A DNA stretch of 64,000 bases, taken from a virus (lineage: Duplodnaviria > Caudoviricetes). The stretch lies in the IMG/VR virus record IMGVR_UViG_3300028591_000103, positions 32,001-96,000 of that record; one strand, given 5' to 3'. Made by a program: the position numbers and the translations under genes. This document shows, one piece after another, positions 10,101-26,200 of this stretch. Each line of letters starts with the position of its first letter. Position 1 is the stretch's first letter. The notes below the pieces were generated by a model. The model worked only from the letters and a program-made list of their open reading frames with translations, did not search any database and had not been told where the DNA came from.

Positions 10101-12362
10101 TTAGTCCTTGCTGTAATACTTGTTAGCAGCCCATGCCGGAGCAACACCAGTAACTGCAGTACGCTCACCTTCCTCGGTGTCAGCGACGAAGTAGGTGCTG
10201 TACGTGGTTGCCCAGTCAGCCGGCTGAGTCTGGATTGCAGTACCACCGGTTGCAGCGGTGAAGTAGAACTTGGAGGTATCGAACTGAGGAGCAACCGCAG
10301 TCACAGCCTCCATTGCAGTGCCACCAGCGTTCAGCTGATAGTAGTTGCCATAGGTGGTTGCCCAGTTATCCGGCTCAGAAGTGGTAACGGTGTAACCCTC
10401 AGTCGGATCGACCGGAGTATCACCACCAGCGACCGGACCAGCGTTGGAATCCGGAACCAGAACAGTGTTCTTGCAGATGACGCGACCCTGGATACCCTGG
10501 ATAGCGATCGTTCTGTACTGGCTGGAAGTGGTGACGATAACTGCTGCGCCGCCAGGATTCTGAGCATCAGCATATGCTGCGTTCTCCGGAGAATTGGTGA
10601 GGTGACGAGCGAAGCGGAGGTGCTTGTAGGAGATGTGGAACTTGTCCATCGGATATGCCACGATCTTGAAGAAGTATTCGCGGGACACATCACCCTCCTG
10701 ATGCTTCTCCTGATATGCCGGAATGGTGATGTATGCATCAACACGGTTGGAGGATACAACACGGATCGGAACATCAGTATCAGTGAGCACACCGAATGCG
10801 TGGTTCATCATGACACCGCCGATTTCGGTAGACTTCTGAACAGTCCATGTGGTGAACTTCTGGAGCAGACGAGCTGCCTTCGGGTTCGCATAGATAACGA
10901 AGCCGAGGTTGTCCAGCTTGCCCTTGTCGCAGAGCTCGTAGATAACAGAAGCGATTGCGTTGTGAATTGCATTCGTTCTGTACTCCCACGGATCGCCGGC
11001 GAAGTTCGGAGAAATCGCAGTCGGATCGAGATCGACATACTCGGTAGCAGTATAGGACTCGAGAGCCCAGATGTCGGTCTCAGTGCCGTCGTACTTTGCG
11101 AACTCCTCATCGAGGTACTGGAGAATGTACTCGTCTTCGAACATTTCCTGAGCAGTTACGAGCTCCTGAACGAGACGATTGTAGAGGTTGAAGTTCAGAG
11201 AAGAATTCGCTTCAGCAAAGTCCTCAACAGTAAACGGAAGCTGGAAGCGAACGCCGTCTGCGATTGTGAACTTGCGGATTTCCGGATACTCGCGGAAACC
11301 GATGGTTCTGAGGTTGGTCTCATTGGAGACGTGACCAGATACATAGATACCGGTAATAGTACCACAGGAAGTAGCGGTAATGGTACCCTTGATGAAGTCG
11401 ATGACACCAGAGAGACGATCTGCAACGCCGGTAACAGTTTCGCCGGTAGGCTTGTTGTTTGCATCAACAACAGTCAGCTTCATATCAGCTGTGATACCAC
11501 CGTTCAGGAACACACCACCGGTCTGGATATCAATCTGGATACCACCGTGCGGCAGGCGAACCTTCTTGCCGTCGATCTCAACATACTGAATGCCGAAGTC
11601 ATAGGACAGACGAGTACGAACGTTCGGAGTGATGGTGGTCGGATCACCATTGTCATCCAGCAGCCAGTTGAAGAGAGAATACTTCTTGTTGGTTGCAGCC
11701 TGGATGGTAGAAAGCGGGAGGACAGTGTTCTCATTGAGACGCAGGCCCTTACCAGCATTCCACAGCTTCTTCCACAGCGGCTGACCATCGTCATCCTTCT
11801 GGAAGTAGATTGCCGGGGTCTCATACTCCTCACCAGTCTGGTTGTTGACCAGATACTTGATGAAGATTCTCTGCTCAATGTTCACAGAGGAAGCGGTCTG
11901 GACCGGAATGATGTCCTTACCGAGGAAACGGATGTACTGCTTGATCAGCGCCGGGAAGTCCAGGGTGGACAGCGGCAGATAGTTAGCAACGTTGTAAGAC
12001 TCCTGGATCAGGAATGACTGCTTAGAAGCATCCCATGCGTTCTCCAGCTGATCTGCAACCTGCTCGAGGTGAACGCGCATTGCCGGCTCATTGGTCGGAT
12101 AAGAACGGAGCTCTTCGAGAACCGGCTCGAGCAGAAGGGTCTTATACTCGGTCATGATCTCATCAGAATCCATCATGCGCTTTGCTTCCTTCATAACGTC
12201 GACACCCATCTTGGATCTCATTGTGCCGACGACCTGCTCGAAGTGATCATCGAATCCATCGCGAAGACCGCGGAGCTCAGACTCAGAAGCATTGTTGACA
12301 AGGCTTTGCTGTTCCTGGAACCAGCTATCGTGGGTACCAGCACCATTACGTCTGAATGCCAT
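10101..12362 (-). CDS. Major capsid protein precursor (jumbo-phage type) with C-terminal extension
   Basis: AAAGGAG RBS before MAFRRNG. A ~121 aa propeptide ends FLIQE|S, then NYLPLSTLDFPALIKQYIRFLGKDIIPVQT, resembling the T4 gp23-like capsid N-arm. Codon bias is the strongest in the window (C/G-ending codons). Confidence 0.85.
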   Translation of the reverse strand: MAFRRNGAGTHDSWFQEQQSLVNNASESELRGLRDGFDDHFEQVVGTMRSKMGVDVMKEAKRMMDSDEIMTEYKTLLLEPVLEELRSYPTNEPAMRVHLEQVADQLENAWDASKQSFLIQESYNVANYLPLSTLDFPALIKQYIRFLGKDIIPVQTASSVNIEQRIFIKYLVNNQTGEEYETPAIYFQKDDDGQPLWKKLWNAGKGLRLNENTVLPLSTIQAATNKKYSLFNWLLDDNGDPTTITPNVRTRLSYDFGIQYVEIDGKKVRLPHGGIQIDIQTGGVFLNGGITADMKLTVVDANNKPTGETVTGVADRLSGVIDFIKGTITATSCGTITGIYVSGHVSNETNLRTIGFREYPEIRKFTIADGVRFQLPFTVEDFAEANSSLNFNLYNRLVQELVTAQEMFEDEYILQYLDEEFAKYDGTETDIWALESYTATEYVDLDPTAISPNFAGDPWEYRTNAIHNAIASVIYELCDKGKLDNLGFVIYANPKAARLLQKFTTWTVQKSTEIGGVMMNHAFGVLTDTDVPIRVVSSNRVDAYITIPAYQEKHQEGDVSREYFFKIVAYPMDKFHISYKHLRFARHLTNSPENAAYADAQNPGGAAVIVTTSSQYRTIAIQGIQGRVICKNTVLVPDSNAGPVAGGDTPVDPTEGYTVTTSEPDNWATTYGNYYQLNAGGTAMEAVTAVAPQFDTSKFYFTAATGGTAIQTQPADWATTYSTYFVADTEEGERTAVTGVAPAWAANKYYSKD

Positions 12363-12430
12363 AATTGATACAACTCCTTTATTATTATTTGATTTTGGTG
12401 TTGAGTAACTCAACAAAAGTTTTGGGCTTG

Positions 12431-13039: not shown

Positions 13040-16000
13040 TTAGTAAACCGTCGACGCCAAAGAGAACTTGCGTCTCTGATTATCCGTTCCCATCTGAACG
13101 AGCTTTTGACGCATACGCATCAGCTTGTAAATTTCCTCTTGTGCAGAATCGTCATCACCATAACGACTTTTCGCTTTCAGGTTCTCGATTTTATCATCGA
13201 TGATCCGAATCTCGGTTGCGATCTCAGCGTCAGCTTCCTTGCGGAGGCGTTCTTTGTCTCCATGTCTCAGCGCTAGATGTGCGCCATATGCAATACCGAG
13301 ATATGGTGAAATATACGTAAAGATTGCAAGCTTACCAGTTTTCAATGCAATACGTGCGACTTTGTACAATGCGGAACGATAAGAAGGATTCTCGGTGAGC
13401 TCTTTCTTGACTTGGTTCTCATCTCTCTTAATGAGAGAATCAATGAACTTTGTCAACCAGTTCTTTGTACGTGATACCGGTTTAGCAATTTCTCTGCCGG
13501 TGTTCGTAAGTTTCTGTACACCGCGTTCCAGTTTCTGCTTAGTAGAAACAGTGGATTGATTGTCAGACATCGCGTCTGTCAATACATCATTACCAGCAGC
13601 CGATTCGACAAATAGGGGCTCTTCAGATGTAAGAAGTGCGAACACTTCTTGGACAGATTTTCCAGTGGAAAAAGTGTTTTCATCCTTAGAATTTGAAGAA
13701 GGTCTGGTATTATCATAATTGTTTGTTGGTGTTATTTTAGCACCACTGTTTGTCCGCTTATTTGTGGACAAATCATTGCTGGTCGATGATACTTGTGAAG
13801 TATTGTTCTTAACGTCAGACTTACCAGTTGAATGATCGTCAGTGGTGACATTCGATGTATTGTGGGAATTCGTATAGTTGTTCGTAATATTGTAAACAAC
13901 CGTTCCCTTTCCACCATTGCTCGAATTATCGATATTACCATTATAACCGGCACCAAGCATATCTCCAAGAGAATCTGCATTCGGATCATTCAGACGAGTA
14001 TCAATCGAATCTGCGAGATCATCAGGATCGTTCATCGGAACATCCGGAGGAAGTTGTGCATCGGTTACTGTCGGCTTCTTCTTTTTATCACCTTTTGCAT
14101 TATCCGCTTTGATTCTGTCTTTCAGGTACGCTGGCATATCACCAGTTTCCTGTTCTGTAACAGATTCAACATCTGTATCAGATGTATCATCAGCATCGGC
14201 ATCGGATAATTCTGAATCAGTAGGAGGATCCATGTCAACACCGTCTTCGGTTTTGAAGGTTGGTGTATCTCCACATTCCTCAACATCGTCGACTTTCTCG
14301 GTTTCTTCTTCCGGTTCATCTTCTTCAGTCGAAGGTTTGCCCTCCCAATCATCGAGATGTTCCAGAAGTGTATTTGTATCCGGTTCGAATGGTTTCAAAT
14401 CAGACATAAAGAGATTATCCATATTGAATGGATTATCAGAAACGAGAATCGTGCCATCCGCCGCATTCAGCCAAAGAACGTTGATTGAATCAGGATCGGA
14501 ATCATCATATGACTTTCCGTCAGGCATATATTCTGCAAACATCAAGACTTTGTTCTGCATGGAGAACTTACCGACATCCTCGGTATATTTGATACAGGCC
14601 AGAATATCGCCCCATCCAAATACATGACCGAGGCATCCACCCTTATCATATCCGATCGAAGTTAGCTTCTTCGGTACAGAATTAATGAACTGGATGAATT
14701 CCTTCGGGAGATGTTCTTGCATGTAACGTTCAATCTGAATGATCTTCTTCTTGGAAGATTTTTCCTTCAGTTTTGAAATAACACCTTCCTGAACAAATTC
14801 CTCATCATCATCCTTGAACAGATCATGGGATTCGCCGATATATCTGTCAATCAGGATTGGTGATATACCTTTATTATACAATGCATCGCCGAGAGTTGCG
14901 ATATCATTGTATACAGCGTCTTGCAACTGTTCACAGTACATCAGATCCGAAATTGATACATCCCCGAATTCCTTCAGGGTTTCAATCACAGATTCAGCCA
15001 CCTGATCAGAGCCCTCGACCGTTTCTTTTACTTCTTTCTTCTTCTGATATGGATTTGATGCACGGGAATTCTTGTTGACTCTTGCACGAATCGCTTTCAC
15101 GAATTCATCCTCGGAAGAATATTCTTTCGAAATCGGAGAGTCCTGTGAATTCGTGGCCAAACCATACATGAGATCGAAATAAATTCTGGAATCAAAGATA
15201 TTGAATACAGTGAGAAGTGTGTTGTTCATGATCACAGCATTCTCATCATTGATCAGATTCAGTTTCAAGAAGTCTTCGATAAATTTGATTGTGCCTTCCT
15301 TATCCGTCTTGAATGTGGAGAACAAATCGATTCTTTCGAAACGCTTTGCTCCATTATTCTTCGTCGAGATTGATCTGTATGATGCCAGATAATCACTCAT
15401 TGCTTCTGTACCGAGAACTCGCTTTGGATATTTCTTGGGGTTATCGAATACACGAAGAAGAATGCACGGAATCACATTATTCGCAAGCATGTCGACATTG
15501 TAGTCTGCTTTTGAGAATAATTCCATGAGATCATCTGTTGTATCACATTTCCGAAGATCCGAGATGATCTTATTGACAAGGCTTTCGAATTTCTTGGAGA
15601 TCTTCCATTTGCAAGAACCGTTTTTCGAATGACATTCAAACTGAATTTCATTCGGGGTTCTGTTCTGGAAATAGTTTGCAGTTGCAGCTTCCTGAACAGT
15701 TTCATCCACAACAACTTCCGCATCCGGAATATCAGTGAATGTCTGGAATCTCTGCACTTCGGTTTCCTGCTGAAGATCTTCGGGAAGTTTGATCTGATCA
15801 TTATCGAAAATGCTTCCGATATAATCAGCTGCATCAAACAACTTATACTCTCCAGGGAATTTCTCAATCTGATCAAGCTCCGGAAGCGGGATCGGAGATG
15901 TGAAGAGTTGAATTGCATCACGATACTGACTCGGTTTGGTGAACAGCTCGAATGAATAAACACCATTCAGCAGCTGATCAAACTTGTCAAAGTGATCTGC

Positions 16001-17041
16001 AATGAATTGAAGGACTTTGAATCCAACAAATGCATGGAACATATCCGTTGCAACTTTGTTTTCATCAGAGAAAATCTTGGACCAAGCAGAATCTTGGTTG
16101 ACTTGTTCAACAGGCTGAATTTCTTCAGCAGCTTCTGTAGTGACTTTCTCTTCACCTTTTTCCTTCGGAGCAGAATCCTTAATCACAAGCATAAATGCAC
16201 GAGTATCTTCCTCGAACTTATCACAATACTTCTTGATGTTCTCAATTTCTTCTTTTGTGATAAATTTCTGAGTATCGTTATTCACTTCCGGAATCTCGAT
16301 CGTTTCATTGAGCTCTTTAATAGAATCAATGTACTTATCGTATTCCTGAGTGAAGGCCTCGTACACAGCAGTCTTTGCTGATTTAGATTCCTCGAGGATA
16401 TCTTTCAATTCACCGATCAGTTTCTTAAACTTTTCGATGTAACCAGTCAGATCCACCTGGTTCCAGAACCAATCATGAGATTTATCAGAATCTTCTGGTT
16501 CATCAAAACTCCATGATGATTGAAGTACCGGGCAGTTCTTAATAGTATCAACAGTTCTGGTTATCAGCTTAGCTTTTGTGAACATTCTCTTGTCGAGGTC
16601 CTTCACATGCTTTTTCTTGGAAATAGATTTTCCAATACCAGCAACAATTGCTGAACCGGCTCCGATAATAGCACATGTTGCAATCAGTTCAATCAATGTG
16701 AATTCCTGAACAACATCTTCGTCTCCACCATCATCAGAATCATCCTCTTCTTTGACAGCTTCGATAGGCTTCTCGACAGCTTCATTTCCTTTGATAAACG
16801 CTTTGAGATTCTCCAGAGTCTCAACCGCTTTTTGTGGATTTTCAACCCATTCGGGTTCCACGTTGTTCAACCACGACAATGTCCGAGAAACAATGCGATC
16901 CAATTGGAAATCATCATTCACAACCGGAAACGCCTTTGTCTTGAAACTGGATGCAAAGAAATTGTTCATTGCATCAATTGCGACACGGATATTGTCGAAG
17001 TATGTCTTTTTAATGACAATCTGCATGTTTATCATCACCAT
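13040..17041 (-). CDS. Large multidomain internal head polyprotein (pilin-like segment, SUKH-like domain)
   Basis: 1333 aa; repeated VVQE, VTTE, TVQE, FVQE, SVTE, SVQE and LFVE motifs at the ends of acidic linkers. Confidence 0.7.
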   Translation of the reverse strand: MVMINMQIVIKKTYFDNIRVAIDAMNNFFASSFKTKAFPVVNDDFQLDRIVSRTLSWLNNVEPEWVENPQKAVETLENLKAFIKGNEAVEKPIEAVKEEDDSDDGGDEDVVQEFTLIELIATCAIIGAGSAIVAGIGKSISKKKHVKDLDKRMFTKAKLITRTVDTIKNCPVLQSSWSFDEPEDSDKSHDWFWNQVDLTGYIEKFKKLIGELKDILEESKSAKTAVYEAFTQEYDKYIDSIKELNETIEIPEVNNDTQKFITKEEIENIKKYCDKFEEDTRAFMLVIKDSAPKEKGEEKVTTEAAEEIQPVEQVNQDSAWSKIFSDENKVATDMFHAFVGFKVLQFIADHFDKFDQLLNGVYSFELFTKPSQYRDAIQLFTSPIPLPELDQIEKFPGEYKLFDAADYIGSIFDNDQIKLPEDLQQETEVQRFQTFTDIPDAEVVVDETVQEAATANYFQNRTPNEIQFECHSKNGSCKWKISKKFESLVNKIISDLRKCDTTDDLMELFSKADYNVDMLANNVIPCILLRVFDNPKKYPKRVLGTEAMSDYLASYRSISTKNNGAKRFERIDLFSTFKTDKEGTIKFIEDFLKLNLINDENAVIMNNTLLTVFNIFDSRIYFDLMYGLATNSQDSPISKEYSSEDEFVKAIRARVNKNSRASNPYQKKKEVKETVEGSDQVAESVIETLKEFGDVSISDLMYCEQLQDAVYNDIATLGDALYNKGISPILIDRYIGESHDLFKDDDEEFVQEGVISKLKEKSSKKKIIQIERYMQEHLPKEFIQFINSVPKKLTSIGYDKGGCLGHVFGWGDILACIKYTEDVGKFSMQNKVLMFAEYMPDGKSYDDSDPDSINVLWLNAADGTILVSDNPFNMDNLFMSDLKPFEPDTNTLLEHLDDWEGKPSTEEDEPEEETEKVDDVEECGDTPTFKTEDGVDMDPPTDSELSDADADDTSDTDVESVTEQETGDMPAYLKDRIKADNAKGDKKKKPTVTDAQLPPDVPMNDPDDLADSIDTRLNDPNADSLGDMLGAGYNGNIDNSSNGGKGTVVYNITNNYTNSHNTSNVTTDDHSTGKSDVKNNTSQVSSTSNDLSTNKRTNSGAKITPTNNYDNTRPSSNSKDENTFSTGKSVQEVFALLTSEEPLFVESAAGNDVLTDAMSDNQSTVSTKQKLERGVQKLTNTGREIAKPVSRTKNWLTKFIDSLIKRDENQVKKELTENPSYRSALYKVARIALKTGKLAIFTYISPYLGIAYGAHLALRHGDKERLRKEADAEIATEIRIIDDKIENLKAKSRYGDDDSAQEEIYKLMRMRQKLVQMGTDNQRRKFSLASTVY

Positions 17042-17065
17042 CCTCTTCGTGATTTTAGAATGTCA

Positions 17066-17557
17066 TTAATCGTATTCATACTTGTATCTGATACGAGTAT
17101 ACAATTTTCCAAGTTGATCATAAGTGATGCCTATGATAACTGGAGACATGTCCATGTGATATTCAAGCGTTTCTGTTCCTTCCACACGGATAATCATCGC
17201 CTGTTGTCCATCTGCGGTAATATCATGAAAAACTTGAATATCGATTCCGGTATAATTTAACCGATTCAATTGATCCGTTAATTTTGACTTGATTGTCATT
17301 GGAATATTTGGATCATCTGAATACTCGTGCAAATACTGTTCAACATCGATCCCCAGTTCGGGGATCGAAGGAAATTGTCCAGGTTTCATTTTCAACAATG
17401 TAAGAATCGCGTTAATACACATTTCAAATGTGGACAATACTTTTGGTTTGTACATCTCATCAACATCGAAGGATACATCATACCCGAGGGTCTGGAAACT
17501 CCTCGGGTATTTGTATGAAACTTCTGCCAATGTGATGCCACGCGGATCTAACGCCAT
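17066..17557 (-). CDS. Baseplate wedge / sheath-initiator protein (gp25-like)
   Basis: AILTLLKMKPGQFPSIPELGIDV matches the gp25-family pattern IL.T..G..P..P.FG. Confidence 0.7.
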   Translation of the reverse strand: MALDPRGITLAEVSYKYPRSFQTLGYDVSFDVDEMYKPKVLSTFEMCINAILTLLKMKPGQFPSIPELGIDVEQYLHEYSDDPNIPMTIKSKLTDQLNRLNYTGIDIQVFHDITADGQQAMIIRVEGTETLEYHMDMSPVIIGITYDQLGKLYTRIRYKYEYD

Positions 17558-17578
17558 GATATCACCCCAATGGTAGAA

Positions 17579-18442
17579 TTAGCCAAGAAGGATGTTCAAT
17601 GCTTCACGACGAACATCACCACGAAGCGGAATCATCATTCTGCATCCATCAGATTGCTCAACAACAATCGATTCATTCTGAATACCCATCAGCTCTTCTG
17701 TAGAAATCTGGAAAGATTCACAAACAACCTTCAAGTCTTCAGATTGATCCTTGCAGTATTTTGCAAGCTCTTTCAGGAATACAACACGTCCTTCATCCAC
17801 TGCAGATTCCTGATGGATAATCGGAGCAATATCTCCGTCCGCATTCTCATGTGACGGGAAATCAACCATGTCGTATGTGATAACTTTCGTTACACGCATA
17901 TTCGGCTGATTCATTGGTGCATTCGGTATCATGGTTCCCAACAATCTTACCGAGAATGATGGGACCGAACCAAGATCCACAATTTCTTCAGTTGCACCAC
18001 GTCCACATTCAAATCCCGGATCGGTTGTGATGATTGCTTTGTAACGATCACCCACAAGACGATTTCCGCGAATCATATGTGAAGTACGAGTTTGTTCAGG
18101 AATTGTCATTCTGATATCAGAATATCGTTGTCCAGCAATATCCGGATTCGGATGATTCAATTCTCCACGCCATTTATTTTGACGCTTCAGCGTTGTGATA
18201 CGCTCATCATTGTCGATGACACTACAGAGATTGACGGGATCATATCTACGTCTCATTCTGTTATAGCAGTTGAACGTTTGCAGAGTTGCATCAAATTCAA
18301 CATACGCATGTCCGTTGACAGAACGGAATAACTTGAAACCGCGCGGATCAACCTTATAGCTTACAAGTTCACAATCCTGAGGAGACTCCTGAACAAAACA
18401 AGCAGTTTCGTACTTGTTCGTTTGTGTACTCTTCAAAGGCAT
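17579..18442 (-). CDS. Prohead maturation protease (T4 gp21 / peptidase S80-like)
   Basis: Motifs LQ...N...R.Y, GELNHP (catalytic His), FSVR (catalytic Ser) and ITYDMVDFPSH. The core is flanked by FVQE|S and IHQE|S. GAAAGGAG RBS before ATG 18442. Confidence 0.85.
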   Translation of the reverse strand: MPLKSTQTNKYETACFVQESPQDCELVSYKVDPRGFKLFRSVNGHAYVEFDATLQTFNCYNRMRRRYDPVNLCSVIDNDERITTLKRQNKWRGELNHPNPDIAGQRYSDIRMTIPEQTRTSHMIRGNRLVGDRYKAIITTDPGFECGRGATEEIVDLGSVPSFSVRLLGTMIPNAPMNQPNMRVTKVITYDMVDFPSHENADGDIAPIIHQESAVDEGRVVFLKELAKYCKDQSEDLKVVCESFQISTEELMGIQNESIVVEQSDGCRMMIPLRGDVRREALNILLG

Positions 18443-18461
18443 ATTCAAACACTCTCCTTTC

Positions 18462-19703
18462 TTAATCATCTCTTACATCATTAATTCGCTGCATGATATA
18501 TGTTGCGATATAACAAATGTAAGCTTTTACAAGTTTATCTTGTACTTCATATTTTTCACACATTGGAAGAATAATTGGTTTCCCTGCAATTGCGCGATCA
18601 ATTGCTGTTGGAAATTTGGTAATTCTTCCAATGTATTTTGAGGAGTTAATGTCATCCAATGTATTGCCTTCTTTAACAATGAATACATATAGTATGACAT
18701 CAATGATGTTTCCAATATCTCTCTTATCAACCCTTTGAGCAAATTCATATAATGCTTCTGGTGGTTTGATTACTTTCAATTCAGCAATCGCTTTGTATGT
18801 TTGATTCATACGATGATACAAATCATCTCCACCGGAAATCTTACGAACCAGATTATTCCGAATCTTTGTCAGCTCATTGGTAGTGATATTAGAAGCGTCT
18901 TCTGTGTCGGGAGCCATCTCATTACCAGCATCCAAATCGGCATAATATCGATTTGCAATCGTTTGTAAATTTTGACGGAATGTGTTCCAAACACGATTCA
19001 TGAAATCGACAAACACTTTTGGTGTTAAATCGACTGCGAGTTTTGTTCTGTGGAACGCATAACTCGTTTCCACAGATTCACCAATCCAGTTGATCATGTT
19101 TTCATCTTTGACAAGATTCCATGATCGATCCAAATGCTGGTAAGTATATTCCATGATGGATTCTTTTGGATGTGGTGATGGGAAGAACTTATTGAATGCG
19201 GATTGATATACCGTCAACCCCATCTGTTGTCGTGCGGAATCACGAATCAGATTTCGTCCATCCTTAACATGTGCAGGATCTGTTACCATGTCAGAATAGA
19301 TCAATACCATCGCATGTATAACATTTGATGGATAAGAAACAATCGTATTGAAATCAGCTTCACTCACGTGAGTCTTCAAAATCTCTTTGATTGTTTTCTT
19401 TAATTCAGGAACGGTAAAACCGAAAATGGATAAGACTTCATCAACATATTTCCGAGGAAACACAACGCGTTTTGTTGGATATTGTTTCGCCAACATTTCT
19501 GCGTTTGCATCAATGAAGTCATTACCGGCTTTCAAATATTTTTTCATTCCTGACGGTGTTTTCATTACACGAATTACAGGATCAAGAAGTTTTTCTCGCA
19601 TCATGACTTTTCCGGGATCATCGAATGATGATTCCTGAATCAGATTCCATGCTTCTTGTTCTGAAAGAATTGGTTGTTCACACATGAAGAACATGTTCAA
19701 CAC
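18462..19703 (-). CDS. Conserved jumbo-phage virion protein, candidate virion-RNAP accessory subunit
   Basis: 413 aa, helical, LIQE|S near the N-terminus. Sits next to the prohead protease and close to the RNAP beta fragment; the functional call is by synteny only. Confidence 0.45.
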   Translation of the reverse strand: MLNMFFMCEQPILSEQEAWNLIQESSFDDPGKVMMREKLLDPVIRVMKTPSGMKKYLKAGNDFIDANAEMLAKQYPTKRVVFPRKYVDEVLSIFGFTVPELKKTIKEILKTHVSEADFNTIVSYPSNVIHAMVLIYSDMVTDPAHVKDGRNLIRDSARQQMGLTVYQSAFNKFFPSPHPKESIMEYTYQHLDRSWNLVKDENMINWIGESVETSYAFHRTKLAVDLTPKVFVDFMNRVWNTFRQNLQTIANRYYADLDAGNEMAPDTEDASNITTNELTKIRNNLVRKISGGDDLYHRMNQTYKAIAELKVIKPPEALYEFAQRVDKRDIGNIIDVILYVFIVKEGNTLDDINSSKYIGRITKFPTAIDRAIAGKPIILPMCEKYEVQDKLVKAYICYIATYIMQRINDVRDD

Positions 19704-21072: not shown

Positions 21073-23223
21073 TTACCAACGTCTTGGGCGAGAAATCTTT
21101 GATACAAGTTTAGCAGATTCCGTGACGGTAACTCCACCGCCCTTTGCAATCTTCTGGAGATGCTCATCCAGATTTTCAGCTTCCTTTGGATCAAAGAGTT
21201 GATCGGAGAATATCTCTTTGACATTGGTCTGTTCCAATGACGAGTAATTTTCGACAATCCACTCACAATATTTCTTGACTGATGGATCGAGTTTCTCTTT
21301 ACTTTCAAGAAGAGCTTTTGCAATCTTCATTCCTGCATAAGAACGTTCTGTAGCAGATGGGTGTGGATCCATAACCAATGTGCCGAGTTCACGTTCCAAT
21401 TTTGCAAGACGATTCAAACGTTCTGTATCAACCTGATTTGGTGTTAGTTTTGAGCCCAAACCACCGACGGCGAATGCTTGAGGGAGATTATACATACCTG
21501 CAAACAAGTCTGCATAATATTCTTCCTTATTGGTTCTATTGAGATATGCTTCAACCTGTTTTGCATATTCACCACCATCGTTCGCTTTTACTAAAGCGCC
21601 TATGCATAATATGAGTCCGATTGGAGCTAATATGCCTGTACATGTCAATACGATTCCAATGATAAACATTGCTTTCGATTTAGAACCTTGACTTCTTGAT
21701 TTTTCAGAAGCTTTCTTCTTTTCATTCAATTGACTCACATAAGACTGGAGACGTTCCATATATCGATCCAGATGTTCCAGATCTTCAGGACCCGCTTTCT
21801 CCACTTCACGCTTTAATTCTTCGATAGCGTTTTCATTGTACTTTGTTGCGGCGATTGACATCAATTGTTTTACGAGTTTGCGTTTCACAAAACGACCAAT
21901 CTTCTGTTGTCCAGTAGCAGTAATCGCGTTGATTGCATTAGTCAGAACAGCACGACGGGATTTGATATTGTCTGTACTGGATGCAAGCATAACTGCGGAA
22001 GCCATGACTGCGATATATCCATCTGTCTCTTTTCTGATGGCCGCGGAGATATTATGCCAAATCTCATGAAGGATAATCGACATGATTGCTTGACCATACA
22101 TCTCACGGTCATTCTGTGCAGGATTGATTTTAACGATATCACCAGCCAGAATCACATCAATCGGAAGTCCATGCAACTGGAATCCTTTTGCTTTTGAAAT
22201 GGAAACTGGTTGTGGAACGTCGCTGTATGTCGGTGTGTAACCATCGGTGACTTTCCGACCATTCTTATCTCGGACATCAAAGAATCGAACTGCAAGATGG
22301 CAATCAAACTGAGATTCAATCAGTTTAATCGCTGATTGGAATTTCGGTTTTCTGATCAACTCTTTGAAATCAAAATCTTTTGTTTCAATTTCACTTCTCG
22401 CTTCATTGATCAACTTGACAGCACGGAAGATATTCTTGTTGTCAAACTTCATGTATCGAAGATCTTCAGCCTTTGCGGCTTTGGGCTGTTTTGCAGCTTC
22501 TTGAATCATCGTATGTGTTTTATCCACATAATCAAATCCAAGAGATTGCATTTCTTCATAACCCATGTATGTAGAACCATGATGTTTATCAAACAAATCA
22601 ACATGGAATGCACACTCATGAATGTTTTCTGAGATATCATGTGCTGCTTTCTCCAGATCAATCTTCGAATCAGATGCTGTTGGAAGATTATTCATGATAT
22701 CATCTTCATCTGTGAAGTACGACTTCGGTTTCGATGGTTCTGAAACATAATCCGGAATCAACTTTTGTGAACGGAGTTCAGCAACCTTTGCATTTGCTGC
22801 AGGTGTATTCTCCATGTCAACAAGACCGGAAGAATATACAATGATTTCATTTCCATCGGAATCAAAATGACGACTGATAACTTCACCCTTCGAAGGATCG
22901 GGTGTCTTCTGAGAAGCATTCAATTTATTCTTCTCAATCTGATCTGCCTGATAATTATCAAGCTTTTCATTTACGCGTTGAGAAATGTTATCGAGAACAG
23001 CACCAATCGCACAAACAATTGCCTTTGTATTTGCAGACGGATTTGGACGATCCGGTGCAAGGATTGTATCTCCTTGCACCTGAATCGAATTTGCTCGATC
23101 ATCAACGACAATATTCTCAGCAGGAATCTGATACATCGCAGCAACAGCTTCCAATGCAGTAATCAGCGAATCAGAATTCTTTATCGCCTTTTCTACGGCT
23201 TCTTTTGTGATTTCAGATGTCAT
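21073..23223 (-). CDS. Head protein with zincin (M48-like) metallopeptidase domain and hydrophobic segment
   Basis: GAAAGGAGG RBS before MTSEI (23223). Motifs IILHEIWHN, EEYYADLFA and DPHPSATER; flanked by MIQE|A and TVTE|S. Confidence 0.7.
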   Translation of the reverse strand: MTSEITKEAVEKAIKNSDSLITALEAVAAMYQIPAENIVVDDRANSIQVQGDTILAPDRPNPSANTKAIVCAIGAVLDNISQRVNEKLDNYQADQIEKNKLNASQKTPDPSKGEVISRHFDSDGNEIIVYSSGLVDMENTPAANAKVAELRSQKLIPDYVSEPSKPKSYFTDEDDIMNNLPTASDSKIDLEKAAHDISENIHECAFHVDLFDKHHGSTYMGYEEMQSLGFDYVDKTHTMIQEAAKQPKAAKAEDLRYMKFDNKNIFRAVKLINEARSEIETKDFDFKELIRKPKFQSAIKLIESQFDCHLAVRFFDVRDKNGRKVTDGYTPTYSDVPQPVSISKAKGFQLHGLPIDVILAGDIVKINPAQNDREMYGQAIMSIILHEIWHNISAAIRKETDGYIAVMASAVMLASSTDNIKSRRAVLTNAINAITATGQQKIGRFVKRKLVKQLMSIAATKYNENAIEELKREVEKAGPEDLEHLDRYMERLQSYVSQLNEKKKASEKSRSQGSKSKAMFIIGIVLTCTGILAPIGLILCIGALVKANDGGEYAKQVEAYLNRTNKEEYYADLFAGMYNLPQAFAVGGLGSKLTPNQVDTERLNRLAKLERELGTLVMDPHPSATERSYAGMKIAKALLESKEKLDPSVKKYCEWIVENYSSLEQTNVKEIFSDQLFDPKEAENLDEHLQKIAKGGGVTVTESAKLVSKISRPRRW

Positions 23224-23242
23224 ATAAATTCCTCCTTTCATA

Positions 23243-26200
23243 TTATGTGTTTGATGGATTTTCTGCCGGAGTTTCTGGATTAACTGCCTGATCCGCTGTC
23301 GGAGTCCCAGCTTTCTCTGCACCATTTTCTTGAGGATTAACCGTATTCACAGCATTTTCCTTTGCAGCCTTTCCAGATGTTTGTGCCTGGTATGCATCAA
23401 CAATCTTCTTATACGCTTCATAATACGTATTGAAGAATTCTTTGGTGATGGTGTTGATTGTGTTCATCTGATAATTCGCAGCAACTTCCTGAAGCATATC
23501 GAACATCTTTTGAGCATTGGACTTTCCACCCTGAGTATTGGTGTCTTCACCGCCGTTTTGTTGAGCTTTATTGGCAGCAGCTTCATCAGATTTCATCTGT
23601 GATTCAACAGCCTTCAATGATGTTTGAAGAGCCTTTGTCATACTGCGAGAAACTTCTTCAATGAGCTTCTGAGAATTCAGCAGATCAGATACGATTGAAT
23701 TCCAGATGTCTGCAGTCATCGCACCAGTGTAACTTGTTTGCTGTTCATTTGGTTCTGTTGTGCTGAAAAGAATATAATTCTTTATCAGTTTCACAGCATC
23801 TTCCTTCTGAGCCTGAGCAATCTTCGTAGCTGTTGCATCATCACCCGGATAAAGATCAGCTTTATAATTCTGAAGCTCTTCATCCGTAATTGGATTATCT
23901 TTATTCGCGCCAAGGAATTTCGCGGTCACATTTTGAACATTCGCTTCCTTGGATAACACATCCTTTGCAGGAATCTTGTACATTGGGAAATACTTCAAAT
24001 TCGGTTTGAAGTTTCCGTTTGCAATCGCCTGACCAATGCTCTTGTTAACTTTGTCATGAGTCTTGATCCAAGCGGTCTTTGCAGCATTCAATGCATTAAA
24101 CGAATTCGGAACATTCGCAAACTTTGTCTGGATCCATTTACCGAAGCTTCTGATTAATCCAGTCAATTTCGAAAGAACACCATTCTTCGGTGCTGTGTTG
24201 ACAGGTTGTCCACCGATCTCAACTTGTGGACCGCCATTATTTTCTTTACCTTCATCTGCTTCAGTAAATACGAACTGTTCGCAATATGTGAATCCGGGAA
24301 TCATTGTATCACACATATTATCATCGTATGTAATGACGGTATGTGTATTATGATACAGCTTCAGAACATTCTTTGTGAAGCATTCACCGAGCACACAGAG
24401 AATATCCGTAACAAGTTGACGATTACATGTTAATCCGACAGAATCGATTATGTGATGCATCACACCAGAAATACGAATAATATTATCTGCAATATCCGAA
24501 TTATCTTTTAATGTGCATCCACAATACATTCTATGAAGCATCTTCATTGTTTCAACAAGAGGATGACGTTCATCATTGCCGACTGCATCCAGACGATAAT
24601 TGGAATCATAGAATTGGTTACCATAAGAAATCTTATCTAACCAATTCACATCCGTGAAGAATGAACATCTGTCAGCAAGGAATCCACGACCATTGTCATT
24701 CAATCCAAAGTCTTCTTCACATTTATGGAAGTATGGGCGGAACATTTCAATGGTAGGTGCACACATTGCATATGTCGGTAATGAATCCATTGTAGAATAC
24801 TTGACAAGCATTGTGCGAATAGGCGAACGTTCCGACTTCAACATGAAATGAATTGCACTCTTTGTATCCTTGAAATTCGGGGTGCAATCTTGTAATACAA
24901 CATTTCTCATGTTGCAATCAAACGGCATCCGTGTGCTGAGATTCACATCATTGGTTTTGATAATCGCACATTCCATGACACATTCTTGCCAAGGTTTTGC
25001 AACTTTCGTACGTGCAAATGATTTCATTTTCTTGTCGACATCTTCGCCATTGTAATCCTTGGCATTTCCGTCGAATACAAGTTTGCATTGATCCGGTGTC
25101 ATTTCCGCAGCATCACGCATCTGTTGTGGAGAAGGAACGGCCTTATCAGAAAACGCCTTTCCACACATCTTAATCAGGTCATTCGTAAATGTTGTACAGA
25201 TCTTCTTGGTATCATCCTTGGAACCAGTTGTATCATCATTGAATGCCTTCTTGATCAATAATCCAATATCGAACTTGGAATTGTCCTTATCATCATAACG
25301 ACGCAATGCTTCTTGATGGATTGCTTCATGAGCATCTTTCGGAATATAGAATCCGAATACACAGATGTCTTTATCCGCAAGATTGGATGCTTGTAATGAT
25401 TCACGTTTCATACCCATCTTCTTAGGATGATCCGGATCATCTTGCAATCTTGCTCCATAAGAGAACATCTCCTTCAGACCGGCATCAAATGCAAGAGAGC
25501 AATGGGACCATTTTGATTTTGTAATCTTTTGGATCTGATGGCTCAATGGTGCAGTGCCTGACGAAAGAACGATGAACAACGGAGCATACTCTCTTCTGCT
25601 GAAAGATTCCTGGGTAATGATTTCTCCACGTCTATCTTTGGAATCAAATGTAGAACGCGGAATTGCATAAGCGATCATCTGTTCCAGAGTACATGTATTC
25701 AGAGAGCAAACAAACAGAATGAATGTCTCGATGTATTTCATAACGAGACCGCAGTCACAACAAACGATTCCATCTCTGAGAGAATCCTTCATTGTATCTT
25801 TAATAGTATTCGGAAGCGCATTGACAACTGCTTTCATTGCAGCAGGGAAATGCATACCATTAATAGTATCATAATCCTTCTTCATATCTTTTGCACGTTC
25901 CGTCAGCTCATACTTTGAATATACAGCTCTGTCAAAGAATGTGTTCTGTGCTTGTACCAGAAGATCGAGCAATGTTTCTGTACGAGGATCCATATAAGAA
26001 TCGAATCCAAGCAGATTATCTCGACACATCTTCACACCACTGTTATCAACGACAAATTGTTTCGCCAGTTCAACTGATAATTTCTCCAGATCAGGAACAT
26101 TGCATGCAACCAGTCTTTTTGATATTGCTTTGAAAAGATATGAGATGTAAGATGCAATATCTTTTGGAGTGATGTAGATCATCTGATAACGTGTATTACA

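Follow-up and report, generated by a model that had tools for sequence, protein, structure and literature searches.

We analyzed a window of 64,000 nucleotides from a phage of the Caudoviricetes, comprising positions 32001-96000 of the IMG/VR record IMGVR_UViG_3300028591_000103 (hereafter G000; 151,638 bases, estimated to be 56% complete). Within the window, the gene P0001 (13040..17041; this and all other window features described below lie on the minus strand) encodes a 1333-aa head polyprotein, as judged from its open reading frame (ORF) and translation, its homologues and its position between the genes for an S80 protease and the major head protein. Residues 114-303 of this polyprotein (16133-16702; 190 residues, 21.8 kDa, pI 5.1) are a discrete, portable and optional cassette. 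Its first codon, that of Phe114 (16702-16700), directly follows the motif VVQE and its start reads FTLIELI...AIIG, as had already been seen in a first-pass annotation of an interval (16130-16714) that covers VVQE and the 190-residue unit. The end assigned there to a unit of about 190 aa, VTTE|A, is likewise borne out by the translation, with VTTE at residues 300-303 and Ala at residue 304.

A cassette bordered by two predicted cut sites

A search of 5.8 billion proteins returned 63 homologues of P0001, all of them metagenomic and many encoded on contigs of 230-277 kb, including jumbo-phage contigs of about 260-277 kb. In the alignment, 14 of the 63 hold cassette residues. In cassette-free homologues the N-terminal domain is joined to the conserved body by a short linker that has a single [VTI]-x-E|A site, and the borders of the insertion coincide exactly with two predicted cut sites. 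Presence, type and absence of the cassette require at least 11 changes on the tree of the conserved carrier body, and proteins with nearly identical bodies, for example P0009 and P0011, differ by the cassette. That the cassette is gained and lost so often suggests a role that is accessory and host-specific.

The cassette is found in more than one carrier. In G001, a complete relative of 277,583 bp (IMGVR_UViG_3300031993_000004), it sits in a different head protein of 782 aa, after EFIQE| and before IVKE|A; this copy is 40% identical to that of P0001, and 17 of the first 22 residues are identical. The G000 orthologue of the G001 carrier, a protein of 371 aa, is without the cassette, as is the G001 orthologue of P0001 (P0042). 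We divided the 15 copies into group A, with 11 copies across two carriers, and group B, with four homologous copies. Homology between the two groups extends over everything past residue 7 (hhalign probability 96.3%, E 1.5e-9), and they share a common plan in which the cut motif is followed at once by a hydrophobic stretch, then by a net-positive segment and a helical bundle.

Searches for the cassette outside this setting led back to the same proteins. An exhaustive phmmer search of 1.84 billion representatives for a stand-alone or cellular cassette found the same protein family only, word-based searches with residues 109-310 returned no shorter protein, just two near-identical long ones, and a profile-guided scan of IMG/VR for the cassette returned G001 only. 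We also looked for QE|FTLxExI elsewhere in two scans of IMG/VR and one of metagenomes; of 42 metagenome stretches, 39 were short chance frames, and the three real stretches all belong to the same cassette family. As far as these scans see, the arrangement does not recur in unrelated phage proteins.

S80 proteases recognize a short motif that ends in Glu (A/S/G-x-E in SPN3US and phiKZ) and cleave behind it, taking off N-terminal propeptides 20-254 residues long (PMC10052503, PMC5694885). Two genes upstream of P0001, the gene at 17579..18469 encodes a prohead protease of the Peptidase_S80 type (phiKZ gp175 / SPN3US gp245), recognized by PF20034 (24.5 bits, cut-off 23.4; E 1.8e-5) and by phrog_3014, head maturation protease (E 1.5e-10). 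Among the 118 non-overlapping ORFs of G000, VQE (20 seen, 6.2 expected, 3.2-fold) and IQE (20 seen, 7.7 expected, 2.6-fold) are the two most over-represented x-x-E tripeptides. The residue following the cut (P1') is S, A or G at 20 of the 40 [VI]QE sites, against a background of 18.6% (p 7e-6), and F is the commonest residue at P4. Near N-ends, [VI]QE occurs in the major head (capsid) protein (10101..12416; phrog_20655, E 2.3e-10), where FLIQE|S at residue 139 is a predicted propeptide site, in the protease (FVQE|S, residue 28) and in several other head-region proteins. It also clusters in two large proteins, P0001 and a protein of 1208 aa; the latter, with five [VI]QE sites, lies at 79045-82671 in the numbering of the window, beyond its end. 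From these sequences, the cut motif of the clade seems to be [F/L/M]-[VI]-Q-E|[S/A/G], unlike the A/S/G-x-E of SPN3US and phiKZ. The earlier reading of VVQE as a capsid-protease motif gains support from the enrichment of [VI]QE above all other x-x-E words and from the S80 protease gene close by.

Both ends of the cassette carry a predicted site. Site 1, V-V-Q-E (residues 110-113; 16703..16714), is predicted from the [VI]QE enrichment to be cut before Phe114; in P0001 the context reads ...GGDEDVVQE|FTLIELIATCAIIGAGSAIVAGIG, followed by KSISKKKHVKDLDKR, which begins KSISKKKHVK. Group-A orthologues have F-[IV]-Q-E at this point, at the cassette border in both carriers, and positions P4-P1 of the site conform to the commonest [VI]QE pattern. 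Judged by this pattern, cleavage exactly before Phe114 is likely. Site 2, V-T-T-E (residues 300-303; 16133..16144), is predicted from the alignment to be cut before Ala304: VTTE|A aligns with VIKE|A, IVNE|A and PVQE|A of other cassette-bearing homologues, and also with the single [VTI]-x-E|A site of cassette-free homologues. The cuts at VVQE|F and VTTE|A that the first-pass annotation had proposed are thus predicted at exactly the two ends of the insertion/deletion cassette. No [VI]QE occurs within any of the 15 cassettes.

Upstream of the cassette, residues 1-109 (16715..17041; pI 4.4) comprise a conserved N-terminal domain and an acidic linker. Residues 8-69 are nearly invariant across the alignment of the P0001 family, cassette-free members included, and the segment is a putative propeptide or prohead-targeting domain; in SPN3US, the S80 protease takes off N-terminal propeptides of 111-254 residues (PMC10052503). 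All P0001 homologues open with MQIVIKK, the Met of which corresponds to Met6 of the ORF (ATG at 17026). Because the homologues begin in this way, Met6 rather than the first ATG is probably the true start of P0001, and Phe114 would therefore be residue 109 of the real product. A GAGGA/GGTGAT-like sequence lies upstream of the Met6 ATG (window 17024-17041).

Pilin-like start and predicted fold of the cassette

The cassette begins with a hydrophobic helix, FTLIELIATCAIIGAGSAIVAGIG (residues 114-137; 16631..16702), delimited with TIGR02532, PF07963 and an AlphaFold2 (AF2) model. Numbered from Phe114, F1-T2-L3-I4-E5-L6-I7 and A11-I12-I13-G14 match the pilin consensus, and the likeness to type IV pilins (PMC4471445) takes in the residues at +1 (Phe) and +5 (Glu), the A-I-I-G at 11-14, a hydrophobic run of about 21 residues and an N-terminus that proteolysis would create. 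With hmmscan, TIGR02532 scored 15.0 bits on the excised module (E 0.016 against the library) and 11.9 bits on the whole protein, for a cut-off of 16.3. In a six-frame search the same profile gave 18.1 bits (E 6.3e-4) in G000 and 16.9 in G001, the only match in each of the two phage genomes and at the homologous place. Over the members, three of 14 rows matched TIGR02532 at E<=10; 11 rows are full-length, and their score is diluted. The pattern [FMLIVY]T[LF][IVLT]E[LMVI] has two matches in the 537 ORFs of at least 60 aa in G000, and only FTLIEL leads a hydrophobic helix. A single such match could be chance over the approximately 250,000 windows scanned; we count the resemblance as non-random because it is conserved among copies. 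At the level of the sequence motif, the pilin resemblance is real but borderline.

All 11 group-A copies agree on F1, T2, L3, E5, I7 and C10, with only 30-40% identity over their remainder, and these six positions are therefore under selection. Group-B cassettes start GVIG, GVIK, VSFGR and GVGA; all four lack F1 and E5 and keep the hydrophobic helix. The first-pass annotation had suggested a pre-matured pilin mimic, allowing for chance resemblance, and had looked to the conservation of F1 and E5, and to the N_methyl profile PF07963, for a decision. Conservation holds throughout group A. A helix without F1 and E5, which the annotation had named as evidence that would refute the mimic, does occur, in the more distant subfamily, group B, only. 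PF07963 scored 14.0 and 10.8 bits, under its cut-off of 21.2, whereas TIGR02532 is borderline.

Other features of pilin maturation are missing from the sequence. A class III signal peptide is a hydrophilic leader of 6-26 aa with Gly at -1, cut by prepilin peptidase (PMC4471445). The residue at -1 of the cassette is Glu, not Gly, in all 11 group-A copies, and Phe is preceded by a 113-residue conserved domain with acidic linker, not by a short leader. We found no A24 peptidase in G000 or in the complete G001, and no pilin among the fold-search matches or among the PDB sequence matches at E<=10, whether with the whole module or with its first 26 residues. Pilins are cut after Gly by a membrane aspartyl peptidase, whereas the cassette is predicted to be cut after Glu, by a soluble serine protease in the prohead.

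The helix has a mean Kyte-Doolittle hydropathy of 1.91 and consists to 50% of G, A, S and T. Across groups A and B the hydrophobic stretch spans 17-24 residues, with 40-59% G/A/S/T. Set beside the roughly 21 mostly hydrophobic residues that follow the cut in a pilin, the uncharged stretch counts 20-24 residues, with a mean Kyte-Doolittle value of 1.6-2.1 and 40-52% small residues. The only PDB match to the first 26 residues was helix 1 of the ATP-synthase c subunit (4bem, E 3.7), through G-x-G...G-x-G, and this sequence match hints at tight helix-helix packing or oligomerization. Residues 124-137 (IIGAGSAIVAGIG; 16631-16672), the second half of the helix, are glycine-zipper-like. A basic juxtamembrane cluster (residues 138-158; 16568..16630) comes next: the first 20 residues behind the helix sum to a net charge of +6, and the corresponding segment carries +2 to +6 in each of the 15 group-A and group-B cassettes. 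Pilins have a hydrophilic leader ahead of the helix instead (PMC4471445). By the positive-inside rule, the cluster favors an N-out/C-in orientation, the reverse of that of a pilin.

We modeled the module with AF2 from an alignment of 14 rows (A2) and obtained a predicted local distance difference test score (pLDDT) of 79 and a predicted template modeling score (pTM) of 0.78. The model has a helix at module residues 3-20 and a low-confidence break at 19-24, and continues as a bundle without sheet, with helices at module residues 27-55, 77-108, 118-134 and 150-177. This predicted four-helix bundle corresponds to protein residues 140-290 (16172..16624). A pilin, by comparison, has an alpha-1 helix of about 50 residues and an alpha-beta head with a four-stranded beta-meander. 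With the cassette model, Foldseek found nothing in the PDB at E<=1e-3, a wide search with VIA gave designed or generic four-helix bundles at best (Z 10.9, below the level that goes beyond a common arrangement), and the ESM Atlas held no usable match.

A second slot, other carriers and neighboring genes

P0001 has a second slot (14159-14797, residues 749-961), which opens after IGESYxLF...QE| and whose inserts differ among homologues. In P0001 it is opened by a site predicted from the motif, F-V-Q-E (residues 749-752; 14786..14797), with G as the next residue. There follows a second cassette, a SUKH/SMI1-like domain (residues 753-910; 14312..14785) recognized with AF2 and Foldseek. The model of these 158 residues has a pLDDT of 90 and a pTM of 0.85, and its best Foldseek matches, 3d5p SMI1/KNR4 (E 5e-3, probability 1.0) and Syd 3ffv, both have the SUKH fold; Pfam recognized nothing in the domain. 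A long acidic linker ending ...VTEQE|T comes after it. In other homologues the slot contains a membrane module, module X (nine homologues), other SUKH-like inserts or, in many, nothing.

Module X is about 170-185 residues long and has two hydrophobic helices. Copies are present in slot 2 of P0011, P0019, P0038, P0040, P0041, P0045, P0052 and P0062 and at L009:949-1476. Its second helix, at an internal position, opens with x-T-L-[IL]-E-L in eight of ten copies, x being H, K, G or T; judged from these sequences, the T-L-x-E-L word is not tied to an N-terminal position. We considered a common origin of module X and the cassette and did not adopt it: the helix region alone aligns (hhalign probability 43%, E 2.5e-4), whereas the bundles fail to align (probability 0.7%). 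The shared T-L-[IL]-E-L is reported here as an observation, with homology not proven.

The second carrier family consists of the 782-aa protein of G001 (L009:361-2709) and the 371-aa protein of G000 (G000:C1:17080-18195, outside the window). In the G001 carrier, three hydrophobic modules follow one another, and a [VI]QE site precedes each of them. The G000 protein reads TVQE|GVGAIVAKGASGIAG... (GVGAIVAKGASG) and then has one clear hydrophobic helix. By sequence, a cut motif followed by a hydrophobic stretch recurs in other head proteins of the clade. Separately, a 750-aa head-region protein (21073-23325) has a MIQE|A site at residue 276 and, near residue ~555, after a basic stretch, a strongly hydrophobic helix with a 19-residue Kyte-Doolittle window of 2.45.

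G000 also encodes split RNA-polymerase beta subunits, topoisomerase II and other replication genes, and the gene neighborhood is, by its sequence matches, of the phiKZ-like jumbo phage type. Neither megablast with 13040-18469 nor tblastn with P0001 found a cultured relative among 50,697 phage records. PHROGs has no family for P0001, and Pfam and NCBIfam gave sub-threshold matches only. We discarded a host call from metagenome-assembled genome (MAG) bins as contradictory, related contigs being binned with Clostridia, Spirochaetaceae, Bacteroidales and Parabacteroides; the MAGs binned with related contigs (L002-L006) come from sheep, buffalo and other guts. GGAG, GAGG or AGGA lies upstream of 46% of first start codons of G000 and of 8% of random positions, and this Shine-Dalgarno signal argues only for a host that uses one.

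Proposed membrane-inserting cargo and competing explanations

We judge it somewhat better than an even bet that the cassette is portable cargo, set free by the protease, and that the hydrophobic N-terminus unmasked in this way inserts into the host membrane, in the manner of SPN3US gp47. Between membrane-inserting cargo and a pilus mimic, the former is the most likely. The P0001 precursor would enter the prohead through its conserved N-terminal domain, and the S80 protease would cut after [VIT]-x-E on both sides, freeing the 21.8-kDa cassette. The new N-terminus would be a hydrophobic helix of 20-24 residues rich in small residues, succeeded by the basic cluster and the four-helix bundle. The freed cassette would probably stay in the head, since it is folded, is probably too large for exit and has no strict internal site. 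It would then be ejected together with the DNA, and the unmasked helix would enter the cytoplasmic membrane of the host while the basic cluster lay against the lipid head groups.

Processed cargo of this general kind has precedents. In SPN3US, the essential protein gp47 is cleaved at ALE-111; its mature N-end bears a predicted transmembrane helix, the protein has been inferred to be ejected and to interact with the host membrane, and its gene slot is highly diverged among related phages (PMC5694885). The cassette shares with gp47 its setting in a head protein of a phiKZ-like phage and, by prediction, a propeptide (about 111 residues in gp47) removed after x-x-E and a helix at the mature N-end. 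They differ in that the gp47 helix lies seven residues past the cut and within the main protein, whereas the cassette helix starts at P1'; unlike gp47, the cassette is a separate 190-residue unit that has its own downstream site and moves between carriers. Homology to gp47 was considered and rejected (BLASTP E 2.7 for P0001 and 0.09 for the G001 carrier), leaving a shared architecture only. In T4, the internal proteins and Alt are prohead-targeted cargo whose capsid-targeting sequence is cut by gp21 after L/I-x-E and which are retained and injected (PMC5694885). T4 cargo is encoded by separate genes with a 10-residue tag, whereas here cassettes are embedded in large carriers between two sites; also, unlike what is proposed for the cassette, the T4 internal proteins have no exposed membrane helix. 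Related phages differ in which of these cargo proteins they carry. We place the cassette with a kind already known, jumbo-phage head cargo that a protease processes and that bears a membrane helix at its mature N-end; what is new is a portable cassette between two cut sites, one subfamily of which has a borderline pilin-type N-terminus.

We propose that the F1/E5 letters are one subfamily's sequence solution for burying a free N-terminus, and that the pilin-like letters probably arose by convergence. Glu at +5, one helical turn from the free amine, could plausibly, on biophysical grounds, help a charged N-terminus to become buried. Such burial would explain convergence on pilin-like letters, with the other subfamily using a Gly start. 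In adenovirus protein VI, the nodavirus gamma peptide, influenza HA2 and HIV gp41, a maturation protease creates a hydrophobic, Gly/Ala-rich terminus, which is inactive before the cut and engages the membrane of the target cell during entry. The group-B starts GVIGAAMG... and GVGAVIGS... resemble these primed membrane peptides of animal viruses, an analogy between unrelated proteins and hosts.

Several observations weigh against membrane-inserting cargo. The best 19-residue Kyte-Doolittle window of the helix, 1.71, is only moderate, and a moderately hydrophobic helix could be a protein-protein interface. The near-invariance of F-T-L-x-E-x-I-x-x-C in group A exceeds what a plain anchor needs and leaves room for a specific partner. 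Foldseek, VIA and the ESM Atlas indicated no function for the four-helix bundle. At the predicted first cut, P1' is F in only two of the 40 [VI]QE sites. Moreover, most group-A copies (P0005, P0011, P0013, P0014, P0017-P0020 and L009, not P0001 or P0003) have a further site of canonical type, x-[TQ]-E|S, seven residues ahead of F-[IV]-Q-E|F; judged from the sequence, such a tandem motif could yield a spacer peptide of seven residues or place the real N-terminus at the earlier site. Finally, cleavage, head retention, ejection and membrane insertion are steps that we infer for an uncultured phage known from its sequence alone.

The unusual P1' residue and the upstream E|S would also fit a scenario in which Phe at P1' blocks the protease, so that no cut is made at VVQE|F, no pilin-like or hydrophobic N-terminus comes to light and the helix stays internal to a larger fragment. 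We give this little chance: F/V-[IV]-Q-E at P4-P1 agrees with the commonest pattern, all group-A copies, whichever of the two carriers they sit in, keep the motif exactly at the edge of the cassette, and the position in group B that aligns with Phe is occupied by G, as is usual for P1'. The composition of the helix, half G/A/S/T and of moderate hydrophobicity, and its only PDB match, to the tightly packed helix of an ATP-synthase c-ring, would suit a glycine-zipper-type oligomerization or packing element of the head that is not membrane-active and resembles transmembrane helices and pilins incidentally; phiKZ-like phage heads do contain large internal protein bodies. This explanation is distinctly doubtful, however, given that 20-24 uncharged residues and a conserved basic cluster are the usual signature of a membrane anchor and that neighboring cassettes in the same slots show clear two-helix hydrophobic hairpins. 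Unlikely too, although to be taken rather more seriously, is an assembly-time tether or extended propeptide, in which the helix anchors the precursor and the nascent prohead core to the cytoplasmic membrane of the producing cell until the cuts release the head and the cassette is discarded. T4 proheads nucleate on the inner membrane and are freed after proteolysis, and protease-dependent release has been proposed for SPN3US (PMC5694885, PMC10052503); the cassette, moreover, directly follows a conserved propeptide-like N-terminal domain. Yet it is optional, with at least 11 flips among close relatives, which fits an accessory role better than core assembly, and in a second carrier it stands mid-protein, flanked by other modules. 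Long propeptides of SPN3US are cut into small pieces, whereas the cassette lacks a strict cut motif inside, and with basic residues after the helix a membrane-spanning helix would put VVQE away from a cytoplasmic protease.

A true pilin mimic would present a ready-matured F1/E5 N-terminus without prepilin peptidase and would block or exploit a pilus, competence or type II secretion platform. The consensus match at F1-I7 and A11-G14, the sole pilin-type match in two genomes at six-frame scores over the TIGR02532 cut-off, Phe placed exactly at P1' of the predicted cut and the (near-)invariance of the first ten residues in 11 otherwise divergent copies all speak for it, and with no A24 peptidase in either phage a different protease would indeed be needed. 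Some pilins (Flp, Com) lack a beta sheet, and helix-only pilins exist among the Com pilins. We nevertheless consider such a mimic very unlikely. On the proteins as such, hmmscan scores stay under the cut-offs (15.0 vs 16.3; Pfam 14.0 vs 21.2), and Gly at -1 and a short hydrophilic leader, both expected of a prepilin (PMC4471445), are absent. The homologous group-B cassettes are without F1 and E5, x-T-L-[IL]-E-L also heads an internal helix of module X that has no free N-terminus, and the basic cluster favors an orientation opposite to that of pilins. With a four-helix bundle predicted in place of a pilin head, no pilin among fold or PDB sequence matches and a basic cluster behind the helix, the pre-matured mimic envisaged in the first-pass annotation finds little support, so that the annotation, right about the predicted cuts, is borne out in part, and nothing ties the cassette to the pilus or competence machinery with which it had been supposed to interfere. 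It is just as improbable, in our estimate, that the F1/E5 helix functions as a pilin, made without Gly at -1, prepilin peptidase or methylation and, after ejection, joining the host type IV filament platform or self-assembling into an envelope conduit or plug through Glu5-amine contacts. If it did, no earlier case of a pilin mimic delivered by a phage would be known, and the assembly interface of pilins would have been invented again by convergence.

Giant phages pack and inject tens of megadaltons of head proteins, most of them without known function. The arrangement described here suggests a grammar for such cargo, in which folded modules lie between prohead-protease sites of large carriers and are swapped between carriers and slots, coming and going among near-identical phages much like tail-fiber or anti-defense genes. 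In one class of module the cut itself would create a hydrophobic N-terminus, the same trick by which animal viruses prime membrane entry. If this is true, those injected proteins that have their action at the host membrane could be predicted, and the pilin-like and Gly-started cassettes would be natural variants with which to test what a buried free N-terminus needs.

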